Source: a virus
Lineage: Duplodnaviria > Caudoviricetes
Direction: 5' to 3' (one strand)
IMG/VR virus record: IMGVR_UViG_3300032274_000009
Coordinates: 1 to 47,133 of that record
Length of the DNA stretch: 47,133 nt
Positions 29,214 through 42,315 of this stretch are shown here, in pieces (positions within the stretch are counted from its first letter, which is position 1; the number at the start of each line of letters is the position of its first letter). The position numbers and the translations under genes were made by a program. The notes below the pieces were generated by a model. The model was not told where the DNA came from and did no database searches. It saw nothing but the letters and a program-made list of their open reading frames with translations.

Positions 29214-29948
29214 ATGAAGAAGACGATCAACGACAAAGAGTATGAGATCGGCGCATGGGCAGACCTCAAGGGCGCCGACCTCAAGGGCGCCGACCTCTCG
29301 GGCGCCTACCTCAAGGGCGCCGACCTCAAGGGCGCCGACCTCTCGGGCGCCGACCTCTCGGGCGCCTACCTCTCGGGCGCCTACCTCTCGGGCGCCGACC
29401 TCAGGGGCGCCGACCTCAGGGGCGCCTACCTCCCGGGCGCCTACCTCTCGGGCGCCGACCTCAGGGGCGCCGACCTCAGGGGCGCCGACCTCAGGGGCGC
29501 CTACCTCAAGGGCGCCGACCTCTCGGACGCCTACCTCAGTGGCGCCTACCTCAAGGGCGCCGACCTCTCGGGCGCCTACCTCAGGGGTGCCGACCTCAGG
29601 GGCGCCTACCTCAAGGAGGCGAAACTGCCAGCATTCCAAATCCCGCAAACCGGCACGCTCACGGTCTGGAAGTCGTGCCACGGGGTCTTGGTGCGCCTCT
29701 TGATCCCCGCGAAGGCAAAGCGAACGGCCAGCCTCGTCGGGCGGAAGTGTCGGGCCGAATACGCCAAGGTCCTCTGGACCGCAGAGCCCTCGCCCCGCAG
29801 CGGCAAGTTCGGGAGTGCTACGCCGATTACCTACATGACCGGCGAGATCGTGCGCCCCGACAAATACGACCCGGACCCGCGTGTCGAATGCACCCACGGG
29901 ATTCACTTCTTCCTGACCAAGGAAGAGGCGGGAGAGAGCGGGTTCTGA
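29214..29948 (+). CDS. Pentapeptide-repeat protein with DUF5758-like C-terminal domain
   Basis: 24 A(D/Y)L(K/S/R)G-type units; C-terminal VWK...LVRLLIP..AKR.....RKCRAEYAKV...ECTHGIHFF.TKEEA. Confidence 0.88.
   Translation: MKKTINDKEYEIGAWADLKGADLKGADLSGAYLKGADLKGADLSGADLSGAYLSGAYLSGADLRGADLRGAYLPGAYLSGADLRGADLRGADLRGAYLKGADLSDAYLSGAYLKGADLSGAYLRGADLRGAYLKEAKLPAFQIPQTGTLTVWKSCHGVLVRLLIPAKAKRTASLVGRKCRAEYAKVLWTAEPSPRSGKFGSATPITYMTGEIVRPDKYDPDPRVECTHGIHFFLTKEEAGESGF
29259..29618 (+). repeat. 15-bp coding tandem repeat x24
   Basis: GCC(G/T)ACCTC(AAG/TCG/AGG)GGC units. Confidence 0.95.
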
Positions 29949-30160
29949 TCCACTCTGAACCTGCCTATTGGTCGGGGTCGGGGTCGGGGTCGGGGTCGGG
30001 GTCGGGGTCGGGGTCGGGGTCGGGGTCGGGGTCGGGGTCGTGGTCGTGGTCGTGGTCGTGGTCGTGGTCGCGGTCGCGGTCGCGGTCGCGGTCGCGGTCG
30101 TGGTCGTGGTCGTGGTCGTCGTCGTCGTGGTCTTCTTCTTCTTCTTCTTCTTCCTCCTAG
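29945..30160 (+). CDS. IHSEPAY-family Ser-X repeat microprotein, copy 1 (CTG start or degenerate)
   Basis: CTG ATC CAC TCT GAA CCT GCC TAT then (NGG TCG)n and (TCT)n; overlaps the pentapeptide gene stop as CTGA. Confidence 0.55.
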   Translation: MIHSEPAYWSGSGSGSGSGSGSGSGSGSGSGSWSWSWSWSWSRSRSRSRSRSWSWSWSSSSWSSSSSSSSS

Positions 30161-30168
30161 GAGTTTCT

Positions 30169-30228
30169 ATGTTTGCTATCGCTTTCGTCTTGTTCTGTGC
30201 CTACGTCCTGCTCGCCGAGGGGTGCTAA
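30169..30228 (+). CDS. 19-aa hydrophobic micro-peptide MFAIAFVLFCAYVLLAEGC
   Basis: AGGAG RBS; single hydrophobic span. Confidence 0.45.
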   Translation: MFAIAFVLFCAYVLLAEGC

Positions 30229-30230
30229 CC

Positions 30231-30335
30231 GTGTCTGACCAAGCAACCCGCGCCCTTGAGCGCCAAGCCGCCCAAGGCGACCCCCAAGCCCAGGCCAAGC
30301 TCACACGAGCACGGGCCCGTGCGAAGACCTCATGA
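30231..30335 (+). CDS. 34-aa peptide MSDQATRALERQAAQGDPQAQAKLTRARARAKTS
   Basis: GAGGGG RBS, GTG start, ATGA-coupled to the next ORF. Confidence 0.55.
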   Translation: MSDQATRALERQAAQGDPQAQAKLTRARARAKTS

Positions 30336-30496
30336 TCGCTCACTCTGAACCTGCTTACTGGGCCAGGTCCTGGTCGTCCCTGTCGTGGTCCCGCTCCAGG
30401 CCAGGGCCGGGGCCGCGGGTGTTTTCCCTATCCTCCTGGTCGCACCCCTGGTCGTGGTCGTCGCGAACCTGCTCGAGATCGAGGTCCCGTGCTTAA
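30332..30496 (+). CDS. IHSEPAY-family microprotein, copy 2 (54 aa, diverged)
   Basis: MIAHSEPAYWARSWSSLSWSRSRPGPGPRVFSLSSWSHPWSWSSRTCSRSRSRA. Confidence 0.65.
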   Translation: MIAHSEPAYWARSWSSLSWSRSRPGPGPRVFSLSSWSHPWSWSSRTCSRSRSRA

Positions 30497-40831: not shown

Positions 40832-41055
40832 TCGAATGTGACCAGTGTGCCCGGGATCTTCCCTGTCTTCACTGTCAACCGGAGGAGTGGCAAGAGGACC
40901 TCTACGCCATAGGCTTCGTTCCCCCCGAGGCCTTCGCTACGGTCCTTGAGTTCGTGCGCGGAGGGAATTACGGCCTGGAACTCCTCAGGCTCAGTCTGCT
41001 AGACTACCCGGAGGTCGCCGAGCGCGTGAGGCGCTTCGACCTGGAGGGACATTGA
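40828..41055 (+). CDS. Hypothetical protein with two CxxC motifs (75 aa)
   Basis: CDQC....PCLHC; GTGA-coupled. Confidence 0.6.
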   Translation: MIECDQCARDLPCLHCQPEEWQEDLYAIGFVPPEAFATVLEFVRGGNYGLELLRLSLLDYPEVAERVRRFDLEGH

Positions 41056-41141
41056 CCACGCAAGGACTCATTTGGATTGCCTTCTGGGGTGCTGTCCTCT
41101 TCCTGGGGCTGGCCCTCGCGGCCTGGTCGGAGTTGCCGTGA
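41052..41141 (+). CDS. 29-aa membrane micro-peptide
   Basis: GGAGG RBS, TTG start; MTTQGLIWIAFWGAVLFLGLALAAWSELP; coupled at both ends. Confidence 0.55.
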   Translation: MTTQGLIWIAFWGAVLFLGLALAAWSELP

Positions 41142-41737
41142 GCCACCTCGCCATTGACCCCGACACTAAAGGCTCAGGGGTCGCCCTCATAGGAAAGCGC
41201 AAGGGGTCAGGCTACGTCCTGGCTGCCGGGTGCGCCTACGACCACGGCCTCTCGGCCAAGAAGAAGAAGACCGCCCTCCTGACGTGGCAGTTGGAGAAGG
41301 TCCAAGAGGTGATCCTCCAGGCTTGGGCCATTGCTCGGGAGGAGGACGACCCCATTGAGCGCGTGACCGTGGAGGGCCAGCAAGCCTACTCGAAGTCCCG
41401 CGTCGATCCGAACGGCCTCCTGAAGCTGGCCCTGGTGTCTGGCGCGGCCATGTTGGCCGGCACCCGGATCGGGTGCCCCGTGACCCTGGTGCTCCCTCGA
41501 GACTGGAAGGGCCAGCAGTCCAAGGTCGCTACGTGGCGCAGGGTTCTGCGTTGGGTAGAGTGGGAGTGGTTTGAGACCAGGCCGCGCAGCCGCGGTGAAC
41601 AACCCCGGGTCGAGTTCTCGATCCCGACGCACGTCAAGATCCTGGGGTCGATCCCGATCTCCCACCGCAAGGAAGTCCTCGACGCACTGGCCCTCGGCCA
41701 GTGGAGTCTCAACCACCGACACAGGAAGCACGAGTAA
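41138..41737 (+). CDS. RuvC-like Holliday junction resolvase
   Basis: LAIDP...GSGVA, VTVEGQ, P..WKG...K, DALALG. Confidence 0.75.
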   Translation: MSHLAIDPDTKGSGVALIGKRKGSGYVLAAGCAYDHGLSAKKKKTALLTWQLEKVQEVILQAWAIAREEDDPIERVTVEGQQAYSKSRVDPNGLLKLALVSGAAMLAGTRIGCPVTLVLPRDWKGQQSKVATWRRVLRWVEWEWFETRPRSRGEQPRVEFSIPTHVKILGSIPISHRKEVLDALALGQWSLNHRHRKHE

Positions 41738-41877
41738 TGAAGAACGCAGCAGTCGAAGCAGTGACGTGGGCGGCAGCGGGAGTGTTGGCACTTCTCATTG
41801 TCCTGATACCTATTGCGATCAACCTGGGGATCCTCTACGGGGCGTGCCTGATCGTCAAGTCGGTCTTCGGGCTGTGA
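41737..41877 (+). CDS. 46-aa membrane micro-protein
   Basis: MKNAAVEAVTWAAAGVLALLIVLIPIAINLGILYGACLIVKSVFGL; TAATG-coupled. Confidence 0.6.
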   Translation: MKNAAVEAVTWAAAGVLALLIVLIPIAINLGILYGACLIVKSVFGL

Positions 41878-42008
41878 TCAGGAAGAAGATTGGAGACCTC
41901 GGGGTCGTCCTGCTCGTGGCGTTTGGGGTCGTGTCCTGCGTGGTCATGAGCGCCGGGATCTTCGCCTACTCGATCTGCTTGATCTTCGAGGCGGCCTTCG
42001 GCCTATGA
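41874..42008 (+). CDS. 44-aa membrane micro-protein, likely paralog of the previous one
   Basis: MIRKKIGDLGVVLLVAFGVVSCVVMSAGIFAYSICLIFEAAFGL; GTGA-coupled. Confidence 0.6.
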   Translation: MIRKKIGDLGVVLLVAFGVVSCVVMSAGIFAYSICLIFEAAFGL

Positions 42009-42115
42009 GCAGGCCCGACCACTTGACAGAGAGGGACCGTGTGATCGCCTTCTCAGCAGGCTACATAGTAGTGATCGTCCTGGGGGCCCTGGTCGCCAAA
42101 TTGGTCGGCCTGTGA
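42005..42115 (+). CDS. 36-aa membrane micro-protein
   Basis: MSRPDHLTERDRVIAFSAGYIVVIVLGALVAKLVGL; ATGA-coupled. Confidence 0.55.
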   Translation: MSRPDHLTERDRVIAFSAGYIVVIVLGALVAKLVGL

Positions 42116-42315
42116 TCCACTCGGAACCTGCTTACCGGCGGTCGTGGTCGCGGTCGCGGTCGCGGTCGTGGTCGTGGTCGTGGTCGTGGTCGTGGTCGCG
42201 GTCGGGGTCGTGGTCGGGGTCGTGGTCGTGGTCGTGGTCGCGGTCGTGGTCGGGGTCGTGGTCGTGGTCGCGGACGCGGACGCGGTCGGGGTCGGGGTCG
42301 GAGGCGTCGGCATGA
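42112..42315 (+). CDS. IHSEPAY-family Ser-X repeat microprotein, copy 4 (67 aa)
   Basis: MIHSEPAYRRSWSRSRSRSWSW...SEASA; GTGA- and ATGA-coupled. Confidence 0.7.
   Translation: MIHSEPAYRRSWSRSRSRSWSWSWSWSWSRSGSWSGSWSWSWSRSWSGSWSWSRTRTRSGSGSEASA

Follow-up and report, generated by a model that had tools for sequence, protein, structure and literature searches.

Ser-X repeat microgenes and the remnant of their partner gene in the genome of an uncultured tailed phage

What four very short genes with one peptide head and differing repeat tails might do for a phage, and with what partner, is the question raised by IMG/VR record IMGVR_UViG_3300032274_000009 (the window; the whole virus record of 47,133 bases, completeness rating 100%). 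The four genes, here termed copies 1 to 4, were found to belong to a wider class of peptides in which serine alternates with a variable residue (Ser-X), the genes of which are usually accompanied by a gene for a small, predicted Sm-like barrel. In the window the barrel part of this partner gene has been deleted and the two-gene module is a remnant, while the peptides remain members of the Ser-X class; both the partner gene and its deletion had been overlooked in the first-pass annotation of this DNA. The explanation preferred here, to which about an even chance is given, is that the peptides combine a barrel-docking head with an RNA-binding tail, and that the peptide genes were retained when the barrel domain was deleted. 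The genes of the remnant module are as follows.

29945..30160, plus strand: copy 1, 71 codons, CTG start, IHSEPAY head, poly-Ser end
30231..30335, plus strand: partner-gene stub, 34 codons, N-terminal helical hairpin only; stop codon TGA overlapping the copy 2 ATG
30332..30496, plus strand: copy 2, 54 codons, IAHSEPAY head; the Ser/Trp/Arg tail is degenerate and mixes synonymous codons
39941..40120, plus strand: copy 3, 59 codons, coupled to the DNA polymerase A stop and to the start of an 83-amino-acid (aa) open reading frame (ORF)
42112..42315, plus strand: copy 4, 67 codons, GTG start, both ends coupled to small ORFs

The coordinates of the four microgenes in the first-pass annotation were confirmed, and HSEPAY was found exactly four times in the six reading frames of the window, the chance expectation of one occurrence being 0.0007 (from residue frequencies). 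Among the four copies the HSEPAY codons vary at four sites, all of them third positions, and the codon list given earlier, in which every difference is synonymous, proved exact. When a metagenomic relative (L219, 76–82% identical to the window) was included, all the changes counted in the six codons (at least five) were synonymous, against 12 of the 54 single changes possible there (P about 5e-4, an optimistic figure because the motif was chosen after its conservation had been seen). The head had been described as (M)IHSEPAY, but copy 1 begins with CTG, and across other phages H-x-E-P alone is invariant. All four starts overlap the preceding TGA by 4 nucleotides (nt), as had been reported (NTGA), but this is the commonest junction of the rightward arm (12 of 33 junctions among the rightward genes listed, with starts chosen by hand).

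Arrays of TCG-NGG of about 130–150 nt were confirmed in copies 1, 3 and 4; that of copy 2 is degenerate. The order of Trp, Arg and Gly is shuffle-like in copy 3 (17 runs versus 14.9 in shuffles) and copy 4 (14 versus 15.4). Copy 1, the array of which reads (SG)11(SW)5(SR)5(SW), is by contrast markedly blocky (4 runs versus 16.9; none of 5000 shuffles as low). The suggestion of a combinatorial core was not borne out, copy 1 being made of slippage blocks. Contigs matching the window were available from sequencing runs designated X1–X4, the best-matching datasets being labelled microbial mat metagenomes. Those of X1 and X2 enter every pure array from its flanks, and no listed X1–X4 contig spans arrays 1, 3 and 4, so that the inner length and order of these three arrays are those of the window assembly alone. 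No match of the peptides was obtained in Pfam or PHROGs and no meaningful one in NCBIfam, the exact window peptides were not in the protein collection searched, and a peptide sequence search scored none of 1227 candidates, a blank to be expected with low complexity. The four ORFs are likely to be translated as short basic peptides.

Because the variable base of TCG-NGG is silent in the Gly-Arg frame, the frame under selection had to be tested. A scan for arrays built on TCT/TCA returned 124 loci with 175 arrays, in which the Ser-X and +1 frames are open by construction. Ser-X is kept throughout these, while +1 no longer reads Gly-Arg but Gly-Leu/Gln/His, and only 89 of the 175 have an open +2 frame. 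AGG makes up 547 units in this set versus 20 of 3090 in the TCG set (the latter figure being partly an effect of the pattern), a contrast that fits codon preference. In copy 2, nine of 17 Ser codons are not TCG and seven of eight Arg codons are not CGG; 21 of its 33 departures from the pure repeat fall at third positions (P 0.015, 3000 neutral-decay simulations), and 32 of 45 codons still encode Ser, Trp, Arg or Gly (P 0.004, 3000 simulations), the frame being open in 5.6% of simulated runs. As judged from these codon patterns the Ser-X frame is under selection, in support of the earlier proposal of a selected head followed by a frame-preserving variable tail.

The family is not unique to this locus, as had been supposed, such arrays being present in hundreds of viral contigs. 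The TCG pattern was found at 120 loci in viral contigs (about 260 stored IMG/VR stretches estimated), and for the TCT/TCA pattern about 480 stored stretches were estimated. Clustering of 652 ORFs neighbouring the 120 loci gave one large family, present at 82 loci, and no other at more than four; the neighbourhood analysis that had been proposed thus revealed no common neighbour besides this partner gene. A partner profile matched 89 of the 120 TCG loci, and 30 of the 31 misses have fewer than 300 bases upstream; where a mixed array has at least 600 nt upstream, the partner was present in 104 of 110 loci (59 of 60 and 45 of 50). Partner and peptide genes overlap by 4 nt in 82 of 142 pairs, and 92 of the 142 partner genes end in TGA. 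The model of the class 1 partner (28 members) had a predicted local distance difference test (pLDDT) value of 90, its top Foldseek rows were all Sm/LSm chains (best E 8.5e-4), and the root-mean-square deviation from 1i8f was 1.4 Å; on this model the class 1 partner adopts an Sm barrel. Heads sort with the partner class, 60 being hydrophobic and 4 basic with class 1 versus 0 and 40 with class 2 (38 of the 142 pairs had no head class, and the head-class patterns were written after the heads had been seen).

Among 160 loci examined, several peptide copies were found in 25 of 110 partner-bearing loci, and copies more than 500 bases apart in 12 of the 110 (among which three pairs are identical or nearly identical contigs). 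Five of the six partner-less loci were checked; the only complete record (at least 90%) has a partner elsewhere and the other four are fragments, and partner loss looks rare. In GenBank MW202573.1 the partner and peptide genes are both annotated as 'hypothetical protein' (UOF78857.1, UOF78858.1). PF22253 (DUF6948) gave no match to six common partners, and no family for the Ser-X class was found in Pfam, PHROGs or NCBIfam. At L068 (2880–3071, in a record 43% complete and without partner) a Ser-X array stands in frame behind a short acidic domain, and L225, L243 and L298 carry 5 to 10 tandem Ser-X ORFs at or near a single partner gene.

The heads of the window belong to a third class, I-x(0-1)-H-[S/C]-E-P. 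A pattern scan of metagenomes returned 21 loci, namely three from the window's own record, L219, and 17 without an array. L219 has a pure array with the head ITHSEPAY behind a gene for a 113-aa protein, at the position of copy 2; copy 2 is the orthologue of this array and occupies the ancestral site behind the partner gene. Five further relatives of the 113-aa protein were found (35–88% identity). The HSEPAY search suggested in the first-pass annotation gave no match in viral contigs, but a pattern of H-x-E-P plus array, blind to the partner, located L351, a phage with no similarity to the window (of the 11 loci returned from viral contigs it alone was true, and all 7 from genomes were false). 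Behind its partner, L351 carries three ORFs with IHCEP-[K/T]-FW, the third cut by the contig end, and its first complete peptide ORF has a CTG start in a C-TGA overlap. The L351 partner has the hairpin-plus-barrel arrangement of L219 (E 4e-33), and in both loci the intact partner lies directly 5' of the peptide genes. With a looser EP-[AG]-Y pattern 80 loci were obtained, but no array follows any of them. A protein-based locus search of viral and genome contigs with the class-3 partner was blank, as was one with the DNA polymerase; the former overlooked L351, so that little weight attaches to such blanks.

The L351 partner scored 14.0 bits on the canonical partner profile, versus at most 4.3 in 1000 shuffles, and the class-3 and canonical profiles scored 24.9 against each other, versus at most 18.9 in 200 column shuffles. 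The two are in register over 63–70 positions and occupy the same gene position. On sequence grounds the class-3 partner is a probable remote homologue of the common partner; it differs from the two common classes by an added N-terminal helical hairpin and by a similarity that is only remote. Atlas matches of the class-3 barrel scored below 0.9. A 5388-aa protein (P0004) has 14 stretches matching the class-3 barrel profile (E 1.6e-31) and was left out of the alignments.

The window matched neither of the common partner profiles (best E 0.75 and 0.84). What is left of its partner gene is 34 codons, the first 31 or so of which match L219 and only positions 2–32 of the class-3 profile; 79 barrel codons are gone, and an intact partner gene is found in L219 and L351 and not in the window. 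The deletion junction lies inside a 9.9-kilobase (kb) X1 contig (30166–39996) with a depth of 49, equal to that of the rest of the genome, and inside a 3.4-kb X2 contig (30166–33576). As X1 and X2 may be the source of the window, the junction shows a real dominant genotype and not an independent occurrence. A relative with an intact barrel was present in X1 and X2 too, at lower depth. The common module shares with the window a TCN-NGG tail, a short conserved head, the 4-nt upstream overlap and tandem or dispersed extra copies, and the window differs in its third head class, its deleted barrel and the spread of its copies over 12 kb.

The peptide genes are gained and lost at single stop-start gene junctions among relatives. 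L219 lacks copy 1, its pentapeptide gene being joined straight to a 19-codon ORF, and X1 and X2 contigs identical to L219 bridge the empty copy 1 site. A relative in X4 has a copy at site 1 (head read by eye as IVHSEPVP, end resembling that of copy 1) and probably keeps the barrel; the X4 contig suggests a site-2 gene about as long as copy 2, so that the degeneracy of copy 2 need not stem from the barrel deletion. One X1 contig (depth 3.8) joins 41987 to 42333, without copy 4 and its preceding 36-codon ORF.

Under the docking explanation the peptide head is predicted to dock on the small Sm-like barrel, and the basic, aromatic Ser-(Trp/Arg/Gly) tail would bind RNA. The unit would then work as an Sm protein with a detached tail of RS (Arg-Ser) or RG (Arg-Gly) type and act on RNA in the replication phase; what the tail is made of and how long it is would matter, the order of its residues would not. 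Tails would change by 6-nt slippage, and copies would spread by recombination at stop-start junctions, most likely having multiplied while the barrel existed and then outlived it. Several observations weigh against this explanation. With the barrel gone, a peptide that had no role other than to serve it should be expendable, but four copies stay open. In no frame are single-base departures within the pure arrays enriched for synonymous changes (44, 27, 28, 62 and 17 at hexamer positions 1, 2, 3, 5 and 6). Head and partner genes are linked, so that the matching of their classes may be shared descent only. For the class-3 partner, the HHalign probability against the common partner was only 31%, the model had a pLDDT of 56 with a best Foldseek E of 0.17 (chromo/Tudor), and VIA-align gave Z values of 3.2–4.1, with LSm and Hfq chains tied with other SH3-like barrels. 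Finally, an Sm fold alone does not imply RNA binding, since wild-type GoF and MotB.1 of phage T4 are reported to have been without effect in a reporter assay (PMC12152347).

A real if doubtful possibility is that the peptides act on their own, as basic Trp/Arg-rich chains directed at a host target (an Sm/Hfq-type or SH3-like barrel, the ribosome, nucleic acid or a defence protein) or at the barrel of co-infecting relatives, the phage barrel being an optional chaperone. It would account for a complete genome in which the barrel is absent, the four heads are intact and all frames are open, for partner-distant copies in the 12 of 110 partner-bearing loci counted above (duplicates or near-duplicates included), and for the co-occurrence of a lower-depth, barrel-bearing relative in X1 and X2. 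However, the copies may have acquired all their synonymous differences before the deletion, so that the same data fit this explanation and the docking one: relatives about 76–82% identical keep the barrel, and one of them shares the site-1 copy. Among the five checked loci without a partner, moreover, the single record of 90% completeness or more carries a partner elsewhere. Unlikely, too, is the more far-reaching proposal of a split Sm and RS-tail system with at least three matched head-barrel classes, in which a barrel-less phage would aim four peptides at a host barrel (Hfq-like) or at the barrels of co-infecting relatives. Decidedly improbable is a reading of the ORFs as translated spacers with little function of their own, microsatellite genes prone to slippage that are tolerated for operon coupling, with selection mainly on an open frame. 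Relatives couple the flanking genes directly with no spacer, the head residues persist among paralogues through synonymous change, and likewise in an unrelated phage, copy 2 keeps Ser, Trp, Arg and Gly beyond neutral decay, and the three-letter alphabet recurs in hundreds of contigs with differing codons. These points stand against a random or blocky residue order, copies that come and go among relatives, and the coupling or closeness of all copies at both ends, which the 34-codon stub likewise keeps.

Very little probability is given to a leader peptide sensing Trp, Ser or Arg tRNAs and gating the next gene, or to a precursor of a ribosomally synthesized and post-translationally modified peptide (RiPP) or a kinase substrate, all of which had been put forward in the first-pass annotation. 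The ORFs are indeed short, Trp-rich and coupled to downstream genes, and one terminator-like match (30108–30132) lies in copy 1; but terminator-like sites numbered 8 versus 9.8 in shuffles, the Ser and Arg codons vary by phage (TCG/CGG in the TCG set, TCT/TCA/AGG in the TCT/TCA set), the downstream genes are unrelated, and relatives join the same genes without the microgene. No kinase, RiPP enzyme, peptidase or exporter was found among the scanned window proteins (many of which have no family), and besides the partner, the only conserved neighbour, no neighbour family occurs in more than 4 of 120 loci. Equally little weight is due to a product of another frame or to the nucleic acid itself (poly(Gly-Arg) appended to the upstream protein when its TGA is read through, poly-Val from the downstream frame, or a structure formed by G-rich sequence). 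The variable base of TCG-NGG is an Arg wobble position in +1, the frame of the upstream gene in the 4-nt overlap, and TGA ends 92 of 142 partner genes, but this TGA is forced by the ATGA-type overlap; with TCT/TCA the +1 frame reads Gly-Leu/Gln/His and +2 is often closed, and copy 2 keeps Ser-X and not Gly-Arg.

As the first-pass annotation had it, no described function is on record: no description of the class was found in the literature searched (supplements excluded, subscription journals mostly not covered), and the Ser-X class is without known counterpart there. Eukaryotic SmD1, SmD3 and LSm4 carry RG tails, and SR proteins carry RS domains. By analogy, the phage module may be likened to these in pairing an Sm barrel with a basic, low-complexity chain of dipeptide repeats; it differs in that the chain is a separate gene, with Ser at every second position and much Trp. 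GoF, MotB.1 and Frd.2 of T4 are phage proteins with an LSm-like fold which, as described in the part of PMC12152347 used here, resemble the partner in being small, lying in the early or replication region, having a predicted LSm-like fold and possibly affecting RNA; that part of the source names no repeat-peptide partner for them, and the likeness is one of description. Amino-acid tandem repeats of Borgs, which include Borg Sm proteins with N-terminal repeats, are portrayed in the portion of PMC9879509 cited here as fast-changing, with unit lengths divisible by three that keep the frame, disordered products and some possible stand-alone repeat peptides. According to the same portion of PMC9879509, those repeats are mostly perfect and lie within larger proteins of archaeal elements; the phage arrays, in contrast, are imperfect dipeptide arrays that form whole microgenes of tailed phages and use one recurrent alphabet.

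What this locus newly contributes is a third class of head and partner, and a deleted barrel. Ser-X peptides as such are common in uncultured phages; the locus offers a third matched head-partner pair, together with near-isogenic phages that differ in whether the barrel is present and whether the insertion sites are occupied. If head-barrel pairing and RNA binding are true, the module would be a phage counterpart, in two genes, of the RS/RG-tailed Sm proteins of eukaryotes. A barrel-less genome such as this one would be a natural test of whether the peptides act alone. The genes that flank the copies are as follows.

29214..29948, plus strand: pentapeptide-repeat and DUF5758 protein, 5' of copy 1
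30169..30228, plus strand: hydrophobic 19-codon ORF separating copy 1 from the partner stub; conserved in L219
30489..32093, plus strand: PD-(D/E)XK exonuclease, 3' of copy 2
37821–39944, plus strand: DNA polymerase A, 5' of copy 3
40120–40371, plus strand: 83-aa basic ORF coupled to copy 3, with a Lys/Arg-rich N-terminus

The CTG start of copy 1 overlaps the TGA of the pentapeptide-repeat gene. The copies had been placed among replication and nuclease genes, a setting that does not extend directly to copy 4, which is surrounded by small hydrophobic and hypothetical ORFs. Judged by eye the 83-aa ORF is SH3/Tudor-like, but it matched neither of the two partner profiles (E 0.55 and 0.18); it has no family, and its Atlas scores were below 0.9.

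The window has a G+C content of 63.5%. Its leftward genes are structural (terminase, portal, major head, tail fibre), and its rightward arm carries a serine recombinase, primase-helicase, the pentapeptide-repeat protein, the PD-(D/E)XK exonuclease, a C5 methylase, a helicase, HNH, DNA polymerase A, a dATP/dGTP diphosphohydrolase and a resolvase-like gene. No cultured relative of the phage was found, the major capsid protein being unmatched and the polymerase at most 27% identical, and no RNA dataset was among those listed as containing the window sequence. Positions 1–439 and 46695–47133 form a gap-free terminal repeat of 439 bases (412 identical, 94%) within the start of a 1246-aa gene, which is either an assembly overlap of two strains or a diverged terminal redundancy.

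A 92-base stretch at the end of the helicase gene (35333–35424 and 35939–36030) is duplicated at 82% identity and flanks a NUMOD4-HNH gene (35424–35936). Contigs of X1 and X2 jump from 35307 to 35935, and their skipping of this region fits a mobile HNH gene that is missing in a relative. The C5 DNA methylase ORF (32595–33515, 306 aa) is overlapped for nearly its whole length by a 282-aa ORF (32662–33510) in a different frame, the ATG of which is coupled to the preceding gene. STPR repeats and an endonuclease VII-like C-terminus are combined in one protein at 26084–26797. The dATP/dGTP diphosphohydrolase (PF18909; 40373–40831) adjoins DNA polymerase A; this family accompanies base substitution in some phages, and no purZ-like gene turned up in general scans of the window proteins. 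The serine recombinase (25126–25866) has a resolvase N-terminal domain and lies in the early region, and with it the phage may be temperate or may invert DNA.

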